Assembly (NCBI GenBank): GCA_039545335.1
Contig: BCIN01000001.1
Location: forward strand, 1,410,604-1,474,603
Direction of reading: 5' to 3'
From: Kondoa subrosea
Lineage: Eukaryota
Length of the DNA: 64,000 nucleotides
The position numbers and the translations under genes were made by a program. This document shows positions 1 to 16,079 of this stretch, in pieces (position 1 is the first letter of the stretch; every line of letters begins with the position of its first letter). A model generated the notes under the pieces. It saw only the letters and a program-made list of their open reading frames with translations, was not told where the DNA came from and searched no databases.

Positions 1-377
1 ACAGTCTGGTATCTCGTTACGAACAAGGTGGATCAGAAGTGAGCAAGTCGCCGGAAATTTCACCAAAGCACGCTCGAAGCGCTTCCTCGGGCTCTACAAC
101 CAGTTTACCTAAATCAGCTACCAGTCCTCGTTTCTCATATATCCATGAAGCGAGTTCCTCTGCTACCTCTTCTCCTCGACAATTGTTCAAACCTAGCAAA
201 CCACCGAGTCCGCCGTCGCCCGAAAGTTCATTTGCTGGAGTCAAGAACATGGCCAGTCGTTGGCAACAAATAGCGCAGGAAGGCAATGCTCGCAGTCCTG
301 GGGTAGAGAATGGTGTCAAGCGCTCAAATACGGTCGGGCGAGGTATGGCCAATAGACAAGAGTGGAAAGCTGTGTGA
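1..377 (+). CDS. 3' end of a gene entering from the left; Ser/Pro-rich low-complexity C-terminus, family not recognised
   Basis: Open frame ending ...RSNTVGRGMANRQEWKAV*, tail-to-tail with the kinase stop at 386. Confidence 0.55.
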   Translation, partial: SLVSRYEQGGSEVSKSPEISPKHARSASSGSTTSLPKSATSPRFSYIHEASSSATSSPRQLFKPSKPPSPPSPESSFAGVKNMASRWQQIAQEGNARSPGVENGVKRSNTVGRGMANRQEWKAV

Positions 378-385
378 TGAATACT

Positions 386-2525
386 TCATACGTCAATTTG
401 CATTACAGTAGATAGCCAAGGCTGTAAAAACACATCTAGTTGAACATCATCTGACCTAATGTAATCTAGTTTCAAGAGGTCTGGGCTTTTGATGCGTTGA
501 CCAGCTGAGATTTTGACCATACTTGAAATGAGTGCGAATGCTGGATGAGGCGCCTCTAGGTACACTAGTCGACTGAGGAGCAACCCGCCTTCCATGTTTG
601 TGAAAGGATTTCTGGAAAAGACGGGTATTCGAGCGCTTTCCTGTAGACCCATTGAGTAAAAGCTTCTGGGAGTCGAAATGACATACAGGCCATGTATCCG
701 CAGTAGGAGTTCCCAGTACGTAGAAAATGTCGCCAATCAGCGCGATATCGCCTCGATTTTCCGCAAACAATGTGGATCGCACGCGCTTGCTTGCCTGCAG
801 TCAGGTCAGTTTCCGTCTCGCAAAGTGTACATTCAATATGTTACCTTTGAGGTAGGTACGGCCCAAGGAGGTCTGGTCGTTAATCCTTCTTCCTCCTCTT
901 CCTGATCATCCTCGTCTTGTCTGAAGCCAGTGAAGAATGCAGCAATGGTCGCTCCGAGAGCCCAGATATCCGTTGTGCATGCGTCGTAACTTGCATCACC
1001 ATGCAGAAGTTCAGGTGCTTTGTATGCTCTAAACAGAAAGGCTTAAGCTATCGATACAAGCTCAAAATAGATGAAGACGGACCCTGTTGCTATATCGCAG
1101 CACATGTTTCCTTCCGCTTCGTCCACATTCGGTCCATTGTACGCAATCCCAAAGTCGATCAGCACGATCTGGCCCTTTGATCCGATAACGAAATTCGAGG
1201 GATTGATATCTCGGTGAGCGATACCTAGTTCATGAATATAGGCAATAGACTTGCACATTTGACCAATGAGTGCTCTACTGATAACTTGGAAATGCTTTTG
1301 ATCCGGTACGAAAGTAGGACTATTGAGTAAAGTTGTGAGGGAAAGAGGATAAAATGGCATTGCGAGATTGTAGGAGCCATTGGTATAGCGATCATCAAGG
1401 AGGGGTGCGATCTTTGTACATCTTTAGATTATGATCCACCAGACAAGAAGAAGCATTACCTGTTTACAGTTCAGAGCTTGTAGGATTTCGATTTCCCGTT
1501 TCACATTATGAGGTTGAGGTAATGTCGCAGCAGTAACTTTCTTGATCGCGACCCACCCAGCTAGCCCTTCACTTAGGCGATCGGAAAGCTTTGCATTGTA
1601 GCAACGGAAAGGCGTCCTATAGACAGCTGACAAATTGTTTGCCAAAAGTACAGAATCAGTGAAATCCACTTTGTCCAGAATAGACTTGTTATCAACCCAT
1701 GAGCCAAAAGTGATGTCTTGCTCCAGATTGAGGGTCTGAAAATGCTCGAGCGGCAAAGAAGGCACATGATCCAGAGAGGGTGAGCGACCATCAGATCCAA
1801 TCAATTTGGGAGCAATGGTCACAACAATTGAGCTGAGAAGCTCTGCCGATTTAAGAACTTCAGGAAGGAAGCGAAGACCCGTTTCAACAAAGATGGAGGC
1901 GATATAGTACTGATCGTGAAGCTTCGTGAAAAGATGCCGTAAAGGTATTCGCCCAGCTTCTTCGGTGCAAGGAACAAAAGAAACTCCTAGAGTATGTAGG
2001 GCCGTCGCCCTATTCCTACCAAGCTCGGTCTTGAGAAAGGCTTCCGAGCAGGCGATCCATATGTTCCGCTTCGAAGAGAAGATCCGTCTAGAAGGAGAAG
2101 ACTGGACTAATGGATCTAGTATGATGACTTGCGGCTGCTTGCTGATATTAGGGACGTCGCGTACTGTTCGAATCGCATAAGTCGAGAAATGCAGTTCTTA
2201 CATAAGCACGCACCAGTAAGCTGCGAATCATCTGCTTCGACAGTCCTCCATGTTACGAGTATAGCATCATGCTGCTTTCGTAAACTTGAGCCACACTTAG
2301 CCATAATTTCAAAATCGCCAATTCTCCGCCTTACTGAAACGTCAACAGCATACTTTCTTTTCCGCTCAAGATCAATCGAGGTTCCCCTTCTCGTGCAGCT
2401 ATCCGGCCATCCATTGATTGAGCATAGGCGACCGTGATCCAAGGTCTTCCTATTGGCTTCGCTTTGGTGAACATTTTATCGACAAAAGCCTCGCATCGAG
2501 CGTGGACATCCTCGATAGTGGCCAT
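386..2525 (-). CDS. Fusion protein: N-terminal Rib7/RibD_C pyrimidine reductase domain plus C-terminal CDK-family (Cak1/Csk1-like) Ser/Thr kinase; multi-exon
   Basis: RibD_C motifs RPWITVAYAQSMDGRIA, LRKQHDAILV, DDSQLTVR..QPQVIILD and SIVVTIAPKLIG. The same exon continues to VAIKKV..HNVKREIEIL. Later exons give HRDINPSN, DFGIA, YKAPELLHG, DIWALG and IFYVLGTPT..TWP. Confidence 0.8.
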
Positions 2526-2580
2526 ATCGATATTTAGTGGTATCTGTCAGGTGCAGCAGTCCAGCGCTGTGGTATACGCA

Positions 2581-3591
2581 ATGATGGCAGAAAAGGGTCA
2601 GGATGCAGATTTGGTGCATTATTTCGCATATCGGGAAGATATGAGCTATAAGTGGCTAGGAGAAGGTCGTAATGCGGTAGTGAAGAATGCAGTGCTTTGT
2701 AAGTCTCGTATGCAGTGCTATCTAATGATTACCTAATCAAGCCTGGCAGCATTCGATTTCCGAGGTATACCTTATGTTGAGCCAGCGTTTATATCATGCA
2801 TCGTCAAAGGACTGAACGACTCGGGTGTGTCTAAATTCTGGCCGTAGAGACACAAATCGAATTGTCTTTCAGATTGTCAAAGTAGCAGTACGGAAGACTA
2901 TCAGCGCTACCTTCATGCTCGTTGCTCGCCTGGCGTCCCATACAGGAATAGCTATCAAATACCTCCGCTTGAGGTTCGCTGCTTGTGCTTTCCCTTTGCA
3001 AAGGCTTATGTGTATTTGAAGGGAGTTCTTTTCAGCATTTCGAGGCGAAAATTAGCTGCACTGGCCACATCGGAAGGTTCTTGGGGACATCAATCAATGT
3101 ACAACATGGGTTATGATCTTCGTCAGGTGCAAGTAGAAAGCTTCGATCAAGACTTTGAGGAATCAAAAGAAGCGCTCAGTTGTACGGCTTACATCCTGAT
3201 TGCCAAAGAAGGAGCGAGACAAGCCGGTTTGGTCCCTACTACCAGATGCTGGCGATCTTTGGCACGACCTGCATATTTACGAGCACTATCGCAACCCTAC
3301 GTTGGTCACTTCATCCTGATTCGACCCTACGAAACTTCCATCACCAGAGGCAAGAGGTTCGGTGCTTTTGTCATGCAGGCTTTGTATTTTCCCGTGAGTT
3401 CACACGCAGACTTAATAAGTCTCCTTCTCCTCATGTTTTCGAAGGCTTTCTTGCTTTCATCACTGCAATATCGAATGCCCTTGCCCGGTCTGGGTTGGTG
3501 TGTTGCATCAATGCTCTCGGCTACTCAGCGACTCGCGATTATAACGGAGCGATGTCTACGACCGTTTATCGGCAGCGGTTACCATCATTGA
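2581..3591 (+). CDS. Gamma-glutamylcyclotransferase-like (GliK-like) protein, multi-exon
   Basis: HYFAY start motif (YFAYGSN degenerate to YFAYRED), AFDFRGIPYVEPAF, LKGVLF...SEG, and a hydrophobic C-terminus ending RPFIGSG. Confidence 0.6.
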
Positions 3592-3717: not shown

Positions 3718-5020
<1,303 letters not shown>

Positions 5021-5936: not shown

Positions 5937-8900
5937 TCACACAGCTACAATGCTCGCTATCCTACTTAAACACCTCCGAGCCAGCTCATGCGTGCCCAAT
6001 CTAGATTCCTTAATTTCTTCACTCGTCGCTGGACTACCGATCAAACCTAATTCCACTCCGTCTGGCAGACCAGTCAGATCTTGAGCTGTTTCGCTTAGCC
6101 TGTACGGTAGTCCTTCACTTTCGGATGAGGATTTAGGTAAGGCGAGTAAGGAAATAAGGAGCGGGTAGATGTGGAAAAGATGAGCCATAGGTGAGGCTTG
6201 AAGACTTTCTCGGATACTTGTCGAGGCTTCTCCGTTGATATGATCAGAGCCGTTAGTCGCTAGGGAAGAAAGATTCAACGGCAACCTTATGATTGCAAGA
6301 TTGGGCTAACCTTTGGGTTGACCAGCGAAGGCTTCTGCGTATAGTCCTTCCGCAAGTTCCAGGTTGAGTAATTTTTGCAGCATATATGCTAGCTCATCTT
6401 CACGTATTCTGCCATCTTATATCAGCTTGTGATTTCTGACGGCAAAGGAAATCTACCTAGGAAAGGGCAATTTACACCGCAAAGCATTGTCTGCTAAATA
6501 GCTCTTGATAGTGGAAGTTGCTCGGCTGAGAAGGTAAGGTAGGCATAGTCTAGACAATCGCCTGCTTTTAGACGGATCTGCATCAATGCCTGCGCTCTAC
6601 TCAGTATTGCCGCGTATATTTGTGCGAGCAGCTAACCTTGATTCGCGCATAATAGGAACAATAGATCCGAAGACCAGAACCCGAATCTTTCTCGTGGCAA
6701 TTCGATGATTCCAGCAGTACTGCCTTCCTGTGACTTGGCAGAGAAGGAAAATCGAGACAGTCGCTTATTCTGGGACTCATCGGTGAAATTTGGTAAATCA
6801 ACTTCATAAAGACGCGAAGCCTGCTGCAGGGTAGCGGCAAGAAGAAGAATCGTATCGTCCGGGATGTGATCGTTCAGCATATGGGGAAGGATATCCATTT
6901 CCAGAGAGGCTTGACACACTCGCTCAGCTACGAACCACGCTTTGACACATATGCATGACTGACCTAGTAAAGCAAGATCAAAGTTTTCTGCTGCGCGCTT
7001 TTCCGGCGGAAATAGAGTCTGTGTTGGGGAGCTGTGAGACACGTTAAGATCCTTGGTCATCTACATGAGAGCAGGACACTAACTTGTCTGCAGATATTGC
7101 GGCTTTGTAACATTCGGTCAATTGACGCCAAACACTTTCGAACACTTCTGAGGGCAATTGCGATTGAAGATGTTCAAGCTGTGCTGCACATGTTCGAGCC
7201 AAGCGTAAAAATTGCAAGGCAGCTGTTTGCCAAAGAGGAGGATCATGCCCAAATTTGGATGCAGGCGGACACTCGTATTTCAGCCTTAGAGGTACAGCAT
7301 GAGCCTGACAAGAGTAAATCAGCTGGACGTTATAGTCAATGACTAGTATGCTTACCCGAATAAGTTGTTCGACTGCCCCATTTGTGTACAAGAAAGCTGA
7401 GCTGTCATGTTGCAAAAAGAGAGAGGCTGCTTTAGGCATGACAGCTTTTGTGAGAGCGATGTAAGTGATCTTGCTCCCAGATGTGCGACGCATAGGATTA
7501 GCTTGAACGTCAAAAGCTGCTACAAAAGCAAGAGTAGCATATTCTGCAAGATCTGTCAGACAAGCAGCCGCGACAGTTTCATTTCGCGTGTCGAGAGCTT
7601 GAACAATTTCGAGCACAACAGTCTGTAAAGGTGTTAAGGCGTCAATGTCGGGACGATATTCAGGACTTTTGGTCCAAGTTAATGCACGTTTGCTTATTAC
7701 CAGAATTTGAATGCTTCTGTCGGAAGAGTTTGTGAGAGCTTTCCATTTCTGGAGTGGTTGTACTGCTCGTAAGTAGGCTTCTAGAGGAGGTTGGGCGAGC
7801 TGCTGCCTGTCCAACCAGTCATTCGAGCCCAATTGCTCTCCGACCTCGCACCAAAGCGCCCACAGGGTTTCCAAAGACTGATGAATATGGGTTTCTTCTG
7901 TATCAGCTAATGGCGTAGTATATTGACCAAGCTGTTCAAAGGTCTGCATTGAGGTTGTCGCCAGAGCTGAGGATCCGGACAAAAAACATTGCTTCAGATA
8001 TTGCGTCAAGGTAGGATAGACTTCCCCGAAGCGATTAGTCTGTAGAAGCTTATTTGAAAGGAATAAGCGAAAGAGGCCTGAGAGGGACGTCATAAACAGA
8101 ATGGCAGTCGCATCTAGCTGCAGACGTGTATTTGCTTCGTACTCTTGAGCATTCGAGTCATCCATACTTGATACACCGGATTGAGATGGCTCATTCGTTG
8201 CAAGTAGAGGAAAGATAATCTTCCAGAGGCAGTCGTCCCATTCTTCGTAGGACAAGGATTCACCATACACTTCAAGGCAGCGGAACAGTATCTGCATAGA
8301 CCCATCGCGAACCTCTTGCCGACTATCTCGACACAAGTGTTGTAGCCGGTCAAGCAGTAATATCCACAAGATGCCATATCGAGCTGACATCTGATCGGTA
8401 TCCGCTTGCTGTCGACCTTTGATCTGTATATGATCTGAGACTTGCCATAGTAGTCCACTTGCTGTCATGGCGATATTGACATCTTCTGATTGACTGCCAT
8501 ACTCTGACAAAGCATTGATACACAGCTCGACTTCGTCGGTCGATAGAGCAGAAAGAAAGTCTGTACATATGAGTTGTAGCGAAGGAAAGGCGATGCGAAT
8601 TAGAATAGCTTGACGAGCGTTCGACGATGTAGAGAACGAGGATAGGGTAGGTGAAGGAGGCACCATTTCGGATATAGCAAGACTATCAATTCGGTGGTGA
8701 GACGAAGACTTGCGAGGTGCAGAAATAAGGCGGAGAATAGTGAAGACAGGAGACCATCCACACTCGAGTGCATGACCTGAATGTTCAAGGATATTAAAGA
8801 GGGTTTCTAAAGCCATTTTTCTGATTTCGATATCGGTGGATGTGGAAGAGGTTTCATGTGCGTCGGTTGTTGGGCGAGCTTGAGCAGCCAAACATTCAAG

Positions 8901-11676
8901 AATCCGGCTCTGAATATCAGGGCGCATGTTTTGGTCGCCCCCCTCAACCACGGTGCTGGCAGAGGTAAGAATGGTATCGAGTGTTTGTGCTGCCTGCAAT
9001 CGAACAGTTCCAGTTGCAGCAGGCCAATGCTGTATCGCCAAAAGATATCTTGTGATGATTGTCCAAGCTACAGAAGGGTCACGATAGACAAGACGATGGA
9101 TGTTAAGAATAGCGATATCGCTTAGGCGGGAAACAGCGAAGGATTTTTCGTTAGGACGCTTATAGAGAGTCAGCCTGCGCCGAAAGAATTGACTGTAAGC
9201 GACTCACTGGACCTTTCGACACATTGATACCGCTAGCTCTTCGCCGAGCAGCGTCAAGCTGAGGTTGAGAGAAGCCAGAATCAGCCAAATCGTCTGGCAG
9301 GCCAACCATCGCCACGCTAAGTTTTGCCAGTGCATTCGTGAAAGCGGTGAAGGCCTCATCATTCAAGGCACAAGATGTGCTTTCGAAAAGTCGCGAAATG
9401 TGACCAAGGATTTCAGTCTCTTCCTGCCGTTTATTGGCGCCAGCTCTAGCGCGAAGAACATATTCAGCATTCTGCAAAGCTTCGAAGATGGTAAACCAAT
9501 TGGATCCGAGAGAGCCAGCTAACTGATCAGCCAGGCGAATGAGCGATTCCAGGCAGGCGAGATTGCGAGGAGACAGAATTAGTGCTGGGATAGCCGGAGA
9601 GGAAGTCAGACCAAGGGCATCTGCGCCTGTTGCTAGAACATTGGCTGGCAGAGATTTCAGTGAGACAGGACCTGTGCTACTTTGAGGGGTCTGTTCGTGC
9701 GAAGAATGTATGTTGGCGACGATGGTTGGAGGAATGGCAAACTTGCAAAGAGAGCTGAGAAAAGCATCTCTTGGTGTTGTAAGGTCGAGCATACCGCAAA
9801 CAGCTGTAAAAGATTGGAAAGAGCTCAGGACGGTATTGAAAAGAGGTTCGGAAAGTGCTGTGGTGACGAAGAAGGAAAGAGAGAAGAGGAGTGCTGGCCA
9901 TGTAGCTATGACCATCTCCCGAATTGGCCGTAACTGTGTTTCGTCAGGCATTATCGAAAGAAGCAGGGCTGGAGGTGCAGATGGGCTGAATGTACTGTCC
10001 TTCGAACAAAGAGAAGTAATGATGTCGTTATAAAGAGGATTTGTGTGACTGAAAAAGCCATTTGCAACAGAAGTGAGGCATTGCAGAGCCAGCAGGAAGA
10101 CATAGGTCTCAGGTATTGGTGGCGCGTCAGCTTTGTCTAGCTGGTCTATGCTGAATATGCTGTCAGCTAAATCGAAGTAGATCTTTGGGACACACCATTG
10201 CACCTTCATTGAGCTAGTCTCGGTCGAAAATTCCACTGTTGCTGTTCCTCCAACGCTATTCGCCGCTTGCGCAGCCATCTCGATCAATCCGCTGACAGTG
10301 TATTCACTTCCTGGCGTGGTAGACGTTGAGGACTGGGAAATACCCGAGGTAACAGCCTGACCACTCCCAAGCAAGGCTGGTTTTTCGCTTGCTAATCGGC
10401 TCAGAGCATTCAGCATACTGACTAACACTCCCGGATTCCCTTCTCGCTTTCCTTCGTCTGGATTTGCATCGTAACGTTGCCATAAGCGCATTAGAAGCTG
10501 GAAGTCTGAACAAAGACCGCGGAAAATTTCCAAAGCCAAAACTCTCATCCAGATTGGTGAAGTACCGCTCCCTGAAGCCTGGTTCGAAGCATTTGCTGCA
10601 ATCGGATTTGCAGAGACGCCTAAAGGATGTCCTCCAAAACCTTCCACATCTCCCGGGGCTACTACTTTGACCAACATTTGCATAAAGATCTCCACTTCTG
10701 TCGTGAGATAGCTGTCGAATACTTTGAGCAATAGAAAGATAACTCTGGTGAGTCGCAAGGTTGTACTGAATTGAGGTTGTGTGTCGCTTGCTAAAGACCG
10801 AATGAGTAAAGGTGATAGAGAAGATCGAAGTAGATAGAGTAGTTCAGGATGTAAGGTGGAGAAGACGCTATGGAAGTCTGATAGGACCGATTCTATCAGC
10901 TCCAAACCAAAAGTCTTCGGTAAAGCTGTAAGTTTCAGAAAAGAGGGTTGCGATGTTCCCCGTTGCGACCCTGAGACAAGTATACAGAGATCTCGGAAGA
11001 CGTTGTATGCATCTGAAGCGGAAGGCTTGAGCTGAACCATTTCTTCTGTATCTCCTAATTTGACTTCCTCTGCTATCCCCTGACCTCCCTTTGCGCTGTC
11101 TTCAGCTACGACGCCTTCAAATATGAGCATCACAAGTTGTCGAAGAGTTGCTGCTGCAGTACTGCTGACCACGCCAACCTTAGATTCTTGTAAGCGAAAG
11201 CAAAGCAATAACAGATCAGCCAGAAGAGGACCATGTATAGAAGAATTAGACAGAAGAGAAACCAGAGTCTGCAAGATTTTGAGCTGTATCTCGACGCCTT
11301 GACTTGCTACTGTTCGCAAAGCAGGTACTATCATCGCTAGAGATGTCTTGCCCAGGCCGCTCTTGCTTATGACCAGGCGTTGCAAGCATGATATAGCTAT
11401 AGCTATGACCTTTGGATTCTTGGTATTGCATCCAAGCAGGATAGGTTGCAGTAAGACTGGAGTTGCAGGCAGCTCATCTGTTCGTGACAAAACATGAGTA
11501 AAAGGTGTCTAGCCTGTAGACCACTGTCGCGCGCCTTGCTGTAACTCTGCAAAGCCAGCAGTAGAGCTCTCACTAGTCTTGAGACTGTTGACGGCCTTGT
11601 CTGAGGCTTCTCTGACTTCGACATGCTTCCGCTTCGACTCGTTGGACAGAGCCTGGTATTGCGAAGGCAAGTCCAT
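5937..11676 (-). CDS. MON2: Mon2 endosomal/Golgi Sec7-family-related scaffold
   Basis: LSNESKRKHVEVREAS, STAAATLRQLV, FGLELIESVL, WMRVLALEIFRGLC, IDQLDKADAPPIPETY, FPSLQLICTDFL and DSRQEVRDGS. Confidence 0.95.

Positions 11677-11844: not shown

Positions 11845-16079
<4,235 letters not shown>

Follow-up and report, generated by a model that had tools for sequence, protein, structure and literature searches.

A conserved in-frame fusion of a RibD_C reductase domain to a protein kinase domain in Kondoa subrosea

Gene structure and the junction frame

On the minus strand of the 64,000-nucleotide stretch of Kondoa subrosea DNA that was analysed (the window), a seven-exon gene encodes a RibD_C reductase domain joined in frame to a protein kinase domain. 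Its coding region (386..2525) runs from an ATG at 2525-2523, upstream of which lies an in-frame stop (ORF 2331..2546), to a TGA at 388-386, and the exons (2525-2335, 2284-2214, 2163-1460, 1411-1083, 1028-845, 794-687 and 640-386) translate as an uninterrupted coding sequence of 613 amino acids. The six introns are all GT..AG and 46-54 nt in length; that separating exons 3 and 4 is 48 nt long, is in frame and contains a stop codon. A Mon2 gene neighbours the fusion gene, and its look-alike in the Atlas points, weakly, to Ascomycota.

Exon 1 (2335..2525, minus strand as for all features below; residues 1-63 plus 2 nt) holds the start of RibD_C, with Ala33 at the position of the fungal Rib7 Thr35. 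Exon 2 (2214..2284, residues 64-87) has T75-W76-R77 in place of the G-X-G of the NADPH motif and keeps T78 and D82. The junction exon is exon 3 (1460..2163, residues 88-322), which contains the final two thirds of RibD_C, then a linker, then the kinase N-lobe through helix alphaC, with no stop and no Met. Exon 4 (1083..1411, residues 323-431) covers kinase strands beta4-beta5, the hinge, the catalytic loop, DFG and the activation loop; exon 5 (845..1028, residues 432-493) the APE motif, subdomain IX and an acidic insert; and exon 6 (687..794, residues 494-529) a CDK-type LGTPtxxtWP segment. Exon 7 (386..640, residues 530-613 plus the stop) is assigned to the C-terminal end of the kinase lobe from its open frame and splice sites, and has no Pfam match when searched alone.

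The original prediction of a RibD_C domain fused in frame to a kinase within one exon is borne out by exon 3 (2163..1460) and by the Pfam matches of exons 3 and 4. The translation that it quoted across the junction is exactly that of the stop-to-stop ORF 2197..1424 (minus strand, 257 aa), which spans the RibD_C end and the kinase start and reads ...IASIFVETGLRFL...SIVVTIAPKLIG...LEQDITFGSW...SAVYRTP...WVAIKKV...VKREIEIL. Methionines are found at residues 1, 18, 38, 59, 340, 374 and later positions, with none from 60 to 339, and thus the junction offers no ATG in frame. As exon 3 is also open throughout, the accompanying claims that stop and intron are absent from the junction, and that the kinase has no start of its own, hold as well. 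Over the 80 codons past the RibD_C end there are no in-frame stops, whereas the two alternative frames contain 4 and 7, and only 0.7% of 20,000 shuffles of these codons were stop-free (P 0.007). The open junction frame is therefore unlikely to have arisen by chance.

The reads, once re-assembled, show neither a stop nor an indel at the junction. Logan contigs of two DNA runs were identical to the assembly across 300-2700 (0 differing letters, 0 indels; word depths 141 and 53). Both runs derive from one sample, possibly the source of the assembled DNA, and so the two re-assemblies are not independent of the assembly.

The reductase and kinase domains

The RibD_C (Rib7-like reductase) domain occupies about residues 27-243 (1697..2447) and is interrupted by introns 1 and 2. 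In exon 3 it was detected with Pfam PF01872 at exon residues 8-142 (3e-7, 30.9 bits against a cut-off of 24.1), and exon 1 matches profile positions 1-27 (0.0026; 18 bits, under the cut-off alone). Among PDB sequences, exon 1 matches the Rib7 entries 9l1f and 9l1h (7e-4; rpwitvayaqs aligned with lpfvtltyaqs), and exon 3 matches E. coli RibD (2o7p/2g6v, 6e-4) and S. cerevisiae RIB7 (ScRIB7; 4ha7, 1.3e-3). Exon 2 aligns weakly with 9l1f (E 0.28; ILVTWRTVEADD against ILVGVKTVLADD).

Mutagenesis described in PMC3631187 shows that ScRIB7 needs Thr79, Asp83, Glu180 and Gly182. All four are kept in the fusion, as T78, D82, E181 and G183: E181-T182-G183 aligns to E180-G181-G182 of 4ha7, and T78 and D82 are the equivalents of T79 and D83 in the weak alignment to 9l1f (E 0.28). 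All nine RibD_C sequences in an alignment carry the Glu and the second Gly of the E-G-G motif. The same text has the motif G76-X-G78...G181-G182 of ScRIB7 lining the NADPH pyrophosphate channel (PMC3631187), and here only one of the four glycines is kept, the fusion reading T75-W76-R77...T182-G183 (G76T, G78R, G181T). At the G78 position a Lys also occurs in the solved Rib7 9l1f, and five clade members have T, A, S or P in place of G181. Thr35 is given there as a substrate-specificity residue conserved in fungi, with Lys in bacteria and Asn in archaea (PMC3631187); it is missing from the fusion, where Ala33 stands opposite in the alignments to 9l1f and 9l1h. Against the RibD_C profile exon 3 scores 30.9 bits, and the proteins P0003, P0029, P0020 and P0024 score 86-140, a comparison that is only partly like for like, as these are near-complete domains set against about two thirds of one in exon 3. 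Judged by these residues and scores, the reductase domain belongs to RibD_C but is unusually divergent, and its NADPH channel is altered.

No second RibD_C locus was found in the 64-kb window by tblastn with seven RibD_C proteins, six of which matched, all at 1700-2489 only. Beyond generic riboflavin-reductase labels, the cluster names of the ten nearest RibD_C matches yield a single Mucoromycota MAG. An AlphaFold2 model of exon 3 from a 9-sequence alignment has a mean pLDDT of 51.7 and is confident at residues 9-100 only, and a search of the ESM Atlas with exon 3 was uninformative (best scores 0.75-0.77).

The fusion has two kinds of reductase relative among known systems. It shares with S. 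cerevisiae RIB7, the 2,5-diamino-6-ribosylamino-4(3H)-pyrimidinone 5'-phosphate reductase (PDB 4HA7/4HA9; PMC3631187), the RibD_C fold family, the N-terminal strand ...YAQSxDGrIA typical of eukaryotic Rib7 and the equivalents of T79, D83, E180 and G182. However, RIB7 stands alone (solved chain of 249 residues), whereas the C-terminus of this domain runs on into the kinase, and the fusion differs from it in Thr35 (Ala), G76-X-G78 (T-W-R) and G181 (Thr) and resembles it little overall (PDB E-values near 1e-3). Bacterial RibD/RibG (PDB 2G6V, 2O7P, 2B3Z), which gave the best PDB matches of exon 3, likewise carry RibD_C as one module of a fusion. There, however, RibD_C is C-terminal and its partner is a deaminase that acts next to it in the pathway, while in K. 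subrosea it is N-terminal and the partner is a signalling kinase. We know of no link between this type of kinase and riboflavin synthesis.

The kinase half was identified by matches of exon 4 to Pkinase (Pfam PF00069; 5.1e-12, 46.2 bits against a cut-off of 31.7, profile positions 99-147) and of exon 5 (2.2e-4, 21.1 bits). The Pfam scan suggested with the original prediction thus places both RibD_C and Pkinase above their cut-offs, in exons 3 and 4 respectively. With phmmer, residues 309-478 of the spliced protein align to the kinase domain of P0028 (4.6e-12), a long JGI Ser/Thr kinase with no assigned family and the sole result of the exon 4 search among longer proteins; these protein searches turned up no relative of the kinase that bears a name. 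As this homology reaches into exon 3, helix alphaC shares an exon with the end of RibD_C.

The motifs VAIKK, KREIEIL, HRD, the catalytic-loop Asn, DFG and APE can all be read directly, and the key residues Lys295 (beta3), Glu311 (alphaC), Asp390 (HRD), Asn395 and Asp408 (DFG) are present by the same reading. VAIKK (1538..1552, residues 292-296) contains the beta3 Lys that is predicted to anchor ATP and is invariant in all three sequences compared (K207 of exon 3). The catalytic loop, HRDINPSN (1193-1216), was located in exon 4 by PDB alignments, which also show that the Lys of HRDxKPxN is replaced by Asn392. At the position of the glycine-rich loop (1613..1648, residues 260-271) the protein reads LLANNLSAVYRT, which from its place ahead of VAIKK would correspond to strands beta1-beta2. 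None of the three glycines of GxGxxG is present, nor are they in the two relatives P0025 and P0001 described below, and these stretches contain no Gly at all; the reported absence of the loop is thereby upheld. The N-lobe segment alone (residues 254-322) has no PDB match at E up to 10 and no Pkinase match in Pfam, and its hhalign probability against P0028 is 0.3; its assignment is based on position, motifs and the alphaC alignment.

As to family, the best PDB matches of exon 4 are mixed, including a MAPKK-like kinase, GSK and p38, and those of exon 5 are SNRK (0.0038) and CDKL2 (0.0042). Exon 6 matches only CDKs at E up to 10, namely CDK16 in two entries and Ctk1 and CDK3 in one each, and the E-values of these four are weak (0.36-0.52). 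These weakly suggest a CDK-like character, in agreement with what had been proposed. With all three loop glycines gone and Asn in place of the catalytic-loop Lys, the kinase could be weak or inactive. Absence of the GxGxxG loop is also a family hallmark of monomeric fungal CAKs of the Cak1 type, which are regarded as constitutively active. The fusion resembles these kinases (S. cerevisiae Cak1, S. pombe Csk1) in this absence, a known trait of Cak1, in having HRD, DFG and APE, and possibly, going by the weak exon 6 matches, in being CMGC/CDK-like. It differs from the Cak1 type in the reductase domain of about 245 residues ahead of the kinase and in the Asn at the catalytic-loop Lys. The Cak1 homologues of Sclerotinia and Fusarium are described as kinase-domain proteins, other domains being unmentioned in the accessible part of that source (PMC10454577).

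Conservation of the join

The linker between the domains (1649..1696, about residues 244-259, roughly 16 residues) was delimited by segment identities and alignment to two ORF fragments from two other organisms, P0025 and P0001, the latter being one of 24 representative matches in a search of 1.84 billion proteins. P0025 covers 100% of exon 3 (7.7e-75) and P0001 spans exon-3 residues 13-231 (1.4e-71), with 54% and 52% identity to the fusion, respectively; both being ORF fragments, the comparison covers exon 3. In both, RibD_C continues into the N-lobe in frame, colinear with exon 3 but for a single one-residue indel, and both exit the frame right after the ...Q that ends exon 3, which is the same intron site. 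Both also match the RibD_C profile in Pfam (P0025 43.3 bits, P0001 33.6 bits), and the P0025 match ends at profile position 196/197, corresponding to the FGSW end in the fusion. The join is shared with two other organisms. As the re-assemblies are identical to the assembly, and P0025 and P0001 keep both frame and intron site, the fusion is real and conserved.

Identity between the fusion and P0025/P0001 is 57/57% in RibD_C and 52/46% in the N-lobe, which argues that both halves are under constraint. The linker is equal in length in all three sequences and is the least conserved segment (33/28% over the 18-residue stretch of residues 243-260). One linker residue, Phe in the fusion, is Met in both P0025 and P0001, at the start of the kinase.

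No full-length fused relative was found in the exon 3 search among longer proteins (0 of 2373 candidates scored), and scans of metagenome_contigs with alignment A2 and with P0026 found no locus of the relatives. In P0002/P0026 the ORF ends three residues past RibD_C, which may reflect either an unfused state or an intron at that point. A wider distribution of the fusion was considered for P0003, P0029 and P0030, RibD_C fragments with canonical motifs and a 76-residue tail that is loosely N-lobe-like. The tail remains a lead but was rejected as evidence, as it scores 1.8 bits against a profile of the three N-lobes, ranks 74 of 2001 against shuffles and matches nothing in Pfam.

Origin and possible function

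No description of a RibD_C plus Pkinase architecture, or of Cak1 with RIB7, was found in the literature searched. The RibD_C-kinase fusion thus appears to be undescribed so far, as the original prediction had supposed. The frame, the two domains and the conservation of the join are observed. The most probable explanation, held with somewhat more confidence than doubt, is a genuine and evolutionarily retained fungal gene fusion, predicted to give one mRNA and a 613-residue protein with a divergent Rib7-type RibD_C domain and a CDK-related kinase. The N-terminal domain (about residues 27-243) would have a divergent Rib7-type reductase fold, and the C-terminal domain (about residues 260-600) would be a divergent CDK-related Ser/Thr kinase without a glycine-rich loop; the single transcript, the activity of each half, dimerisation and identity with Cak1 are inferred.

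The fusion may have originated when a RibD_C gene and a kinase gene just downstream were joined by loss of the stop codon and the spacer, since the linker starts exactly at the RibD_C end and the relatives keep the kinase-start Met. As this Met has been lost in K. subrosea, the kinase would be made there only as part of the fusion. The reductase module would still fold and bind a nucleotide-type ligand, given that all four residues required for yeast RIB7 activity are kept, with its NADPH channel and substrate-specificity position remodelled. Yeast RIB7 is a stable homodimer, and the module therefore probably pairs two kinase domains; it might also gate the kinase.

Other explanations were weighed against a retained fusion of this kind. 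The join may be a neutral 'Rosetta-stone' fusion, in which the organism's only, fully active RIB7 is tethered to its ordinary Cak1-type CAK without regulatory consequence, each acting on its own. This would fit with the retention of the four required ScRIB7 residues, with RibD_C being no less conserved than the kinase part when the three sequences are compared, with the lack of a second RibD_C locus within the 64-kb window, and with the relict kinase-start Met in the relatives, which suggests a simple read-through join. However, the RibD_C domain has diverged much further than ordinary Rib7/RibD_C proteins have and lacks the fungal Thr35 and three of the four channel glycines, and full neutrality is considered rather unlikely. 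It is also unlikely, and slightly more so, that one half is dead, leaving either a functional reductase with a pseudokinase tail or a functional kinase to which a dead reductase is attached solely as scaffold or dimeriser. Both halves are 46-57% identical, with the frame kept, across three organisms. A dead kinase would explain the missing glycine loop, the Asn for the catalytic-loop Lys and an N-lobe unrecognised by Pfam and PDB, but the beta3 Lys, alphaC Glu, HRD Asp, catalytic-loop Asn and DFG are present; a dead reductase would explain G76T, G78R, G181T and T35A, but the four residues proven necessary are in place.

Two separate proteins might also be made from the continuous frame, by an internal promoter with a non-AUG start, by alternative polyadenylation or by proteolysis in the linker. 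Although the linker is the least conserved segment (28-33% identity) and the in-frame kinase-start Met of both relatives would allow internal initiation, that Met is Phe in K. subrosea. An AUG-initiated stand-alone kinase would be truncated there, because the next Met is residue 340, past beta3 and alphaC, and there is no stop codon for a stand-alone reductase ahead of the kinase; separate products are thus quite improbable. Hardly any weight can be given to the idea that the join arose in assembly or that the gene is a pseudogene of recent decay. Nothing specific favours either, apart from the DNA confirmation sharing the sample of the assembly, whereas the two re-assemblies (word depths 141 and 53) do not differ from the assembly in a single letter, the seven exons are open with canonical splice sites, and the frame is identical in two other organisms.

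Retained as a single two-domain protein, the fusion could have a more specific role, in which the Rib7-like domain is a sensor for NADPH/NADP+ or for a riboflavin-pathway pyrimidine, and dimerises and gates a Cak1-type CAK. The ligand would be held via T78, D82, E181 and G183 and the remodelled channel. Such a sensor is speculative and improbable. If true, cell-cycle entry or CDK-dependent transcription would respond directly to the redox state or to the status of flavin precursors, which would be a new kind of input to CAKs. Cak1-type kinases are unusual, fungus-specific, essential CDK activators, for which we know of no regulatory domain. Rib7, whose step in vitamin B2 synthesis is specific to fungi, is put forward in the abstract of PMC3631187 as a target for antifungals.

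The conserved covalent link suggests one of three things. There may be a functional coupling of metabolism to cell-cycle control, or a DHFR-fold domain may have been newly used as a kinase accessory module. At a minimum, nature would here provide a clean case of two genes fused through loss of a stop codon, in which the relict start codon can still be recognised in relatives. There is also a consequence for annotation, in that ORF- or homology-based gene callers would either cut this gene in two or wrongly name it 'pyrimidine reductase'.

Reading frame and conservation of the join

The fusion gene lies on the minus strand at 2525-386, and the model built here comprises seven exons (2525-2335, 2284-2214, 2163-1460, 1411-1083, 1028-845, 794-687 and 640-386) separated by six introns of 46-54 nt each, all GT..AG. 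The spliced frame is open over 613 codons and closes with a TGA at 388-386, and a stop lies in frame just 5' of the ATG (ORF 2331..2546). The original prediction was of a Rib7 reductase domain joined in frame to a Cak1/Csk1-like kinase, with no stop and no in-frame ATG at the junction. The junction text that it quoted is the exact translation of exon 3, which contains neither a stop nor a Met, and the frame claim held: Met occurs at residues 1, 18, 38 and 59 of the 613-aa protein and next only at 340. In frame, none of the 80 codons that run on from RibD_C to the 3' boundary of exon 3 is a stop, versus 4 and 7 stops in the other frames, and only 0.7% of shuffles of the same stretch (n=20,000) are stop-free.

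Positions 300-2700 were recovered within one 47-kb contig in each of two Logan re-assemblies of DNA runs, with no differing letters and no indels (word depths 141 and 53), the two runs being from one sample, maybe the window's own source, and not independent biology. These re-assemblies exclude an assembly slip at the junction.

Searched exhaustively with HMMER, 1.84 billion representatives gave only 24 matches to exon 3 at E up to 1e-3, by which measure of sequence the window's RibD_C is unusually divergent. The best of these, P0001 (246 aa; 1.4e-71, 52% identity), aligns with exon-3 residues 13-231, on both sides of the junction, and P0025 (249 aa; 7.7e-75, 54% identity), from a word-indexed search, covers 100% of exon 3. 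Both are ORF fragments from Logan assemblies of two other organisms, and both run from RibD_C through a linker of equal length into the same N-lobe, with one indel of a single residue. Identity of the window to P0025 and P0001 is 57% and 57% in the RibD_C part, 33% and 28% in the linker (18-residue window), and 52% and 46% in the N-lobe. The two reading frames end directly past the ...Q that terminates exon 3 in the window, as expected if the intron there is the same. Thus, two domains share one frame across a conserved join, and the retention of both halves and of the frame in three diverged organisms is the strongest evidence for a real gene under selection; that the fused gene is real is very probable. 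At the end of the linker P0025 and P0001 have a Met, and the window has a Phe; we infer that this Met is the relict start codon of a formerly separate kinase gene. Among the protein matches from the searches there was no full-length annotated fusion protein.

The reductase half and its relatives

RibD_C is matched in Pfam by exon 3 (E 3e-7, profile positions 70-187 of 197, 30.9 bits against a cut-off of 24.1) and weakly by exon 1 (0.0026, profile 1-27). Other RibD_C proteins (P0003, P0029, P0020 and P0024) score 86-140 bits, a gap that is partly one of length, as these are near-complete and exon 3 holds about two thirds of the domain. Among solved structures, exon 3 is closest to E. coli RibD (2o7p, 2g6v; about 6e-4) and then to yeast RIB7 (4ha7; 1.3e-3), and exon 1 to the eukaryotic Rib7 entries 9l1f and 9l1h (7e-4).

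In the homodimeric yeast RIB7, the lining of the NADPH pyrophosphate channel includes a G76-X-G78...G181-G182 motif, activity depends on T79, D83, E180 and G182, and Thr35, conserved in fungi, determines substrate preference (PMC3631187). PDB alignments place T78, D82, E181 and G183 of the window at the four required positions, the exon 2 part being weak (E 0.28). In contrast, G76-X-G78 is replaced by T75-W76-R77 (same weak exon 2 alignment), G181 by T182, and Thr35 by Ala33 (exon 1 alignment). The change at G78 alone means little, since the solved Rib7 9l1f has Lys there. Five clade members vary at the G181 position (T, A, S or P), and the Glu and the next Gly are invariant in 9/9 aligned RibD_C sequences. 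We conclude that the fold and catalytic core of RibD_C are probably kept, with a putatively remodelled cofactor/substrate pocket.

Three RibD_C fragments (P0003 and P0029 again, and P0030) carry canonical Rib7 motifs (GVGT, EGG) and a 76-residue tail past RibD_C that loosely resembles a kinase N-lobe (...VYRT..EG..VALIK....LPVP). Tested by profile among shuffled sequences, this tail scored 1.8 bits and ranked 74 of 2001, a non-significant result; a genuine resemblance would mean an older fusion, involving a canonical Rib7. The more distant clade members P0002, P0026 and P0027 (37-39% identity to the window) have an E-P-G-L-R-F variant in common and are colinear with the window from the start of exon 3 onward. 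Their ORF ends three residues past RibD_C, which may be the unfused ancestral state or an intron starting there.

The kinase half

Pkinase is matched in Pfam by exon 4 (5.1e-12, 46.2 bits against a cut-off of 31.7, profile 99-147) and exon 5 (2.2e-4). Taken alone, the N-lobe segment found no counterpart in PDB (E up to 10) and was not recognised by the Pfam Pkinase profile; hhalign with P0028, a long JGI Ser/Thr kinase, gave nothing either. The kinase start is placed in exon 3 because exon 4 picks up the Pkinase profile only at position 99 and the roughly 100 positions before it must be encoded further 5', because VAIKK (292-296) and KREIEIL (309-315) occur in exon 3 with the spacing expected for a kinase, and because the script-computed spliced protein aligns with the P0028 kinase domain over residues 309-478 (4.6e-12), starting in helix alphaC within exon 3 and then crossing two splice junctions.

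The beta3 Lys, alphaC Glu, HRD, catalytic-loop Asn, DFG and APE are all present by direct reading. The GxGxxG loop is missing, as predicted, with 0/3 glycines in the window, P0025 and P0001 alike. The Lys of HRDxKPxN is replaced by Asn, as alignments with two solved kinases that have the Lys show. The best PDB matches are mixed for exon 4 (a MAPKK-like kinase, GSK and p38 among them) and are SNRK and CDKL2 for exon 5, while for the LGTPtxxtWP segment of exon 6 all four are CDKs (two CDK16 entries, Ctk1 and CDK3), with E only 0.36-0.52. Cak1-type CAKs have a CDK-like core that lacks the glycine loop, a type that the fusion kinase, if CDK-like, would fit; orthology to Cak1/Csk1 is putative, with the balance tipping slightly in its favour. 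The Cak1 homologues of fungi are placed in the CMGC group and have a conserved kinase domain, no other domain being mentioned in the passages available (PMC10454577).

Readings of the fusion and its surroundings

The reading that we favour, with moderate confidence, is a retained fusion on one mRNA of a divergent Rib7-type RibD_C, a short linker and a divergent CDK-related kinase without a glycine-rich loop. A single 68-kDa product would be made, in which the Rib7-like module would carry the Cak1-like kinase on the short linker. If the module is homodimeric, as in yeast RIB7, two kinase domains would probably be paired. NADPH or a pyrimidine of the pathway may still be a ligand of the module. 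A CAK gated by metabolite or redox state is the boldest reading, and a quite unlikely one.

Four rival readings overlap in part with this main statement and with one another. Neutral fusion of two housekeeping genes into a bifunctional product is possible, if on the unlikely side; the residues kept at the RIB7-required positions speak for it, and the pocket substitutions point the other way. Those substitutions and the lost glycine loop are what a dead relic in one half might look like, an unlikely reading given the four RIB7-required residues that are kept and the intact HRD and DFG. Two separate products from one frame would be permitted by the linker-end Met in the relatives; with no Met between residues 59 and 340 in the window, this is very unlikely. 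An artefact is highly improbable beside the re-assemblies and the join in other organisms. The literature search, supplements apart, found no paper that links RibD_C with Pkinase or Cak1 with RIB7; the domain architecture appears to be new, both parts being from well-known families.

Of the window's 93 ORFs that reach 110 aa, 74 were scanned (5 inside the fusion gene and 14 overlapping longer ORFs were left out) and contain no second RibD_C. With seven RibD_C proteins as tblastn queries, the 64-kb window showed no other locus either, six of them matching only at 1700-2489 and P0020 giving no match. The fusion gene is tightly packed in its surroundings. The Ser/Pro-rich C-terminal part of a convergent ORF (3-377, plus strand; no Pfam match) has its stop 8 nt from that of the fusion gene, so the 3' UTRs must overlap. 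A divergent ORF with a double Met start (2581-2736, plus strand; no Pfam match) begins about 55 nt from the fusion-gene ATG and, if a real gene, would imply a very short bidirectional promoter common to both. Upstream, the minus strand carries genes for a Tgs1-type cap guanine-N2 methyltransferase (3721-4275), Mon2 (7047-11508), and a PKC1-like protein (13015-16054) whose domains are HR1, C2 and two C1. The Atlas look-alike of this Mon2 has Ascomycota as its commonest phylum, a weak lead that does not bear out the basidiomycete setting of the original prediction. The two Mon2 exons (719 + 782 codons) are long and intron-free, whereas the fusion gene is split by six short introns. The first half of the window is gene-dense, unlike the approximately 21 kb at about 33500-55000, where no scanned ORF of at least 110 aa reaches E 1e-4 in Pfam. 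The G+C content of the window is 46%, in an assembly of about 19 Mb.
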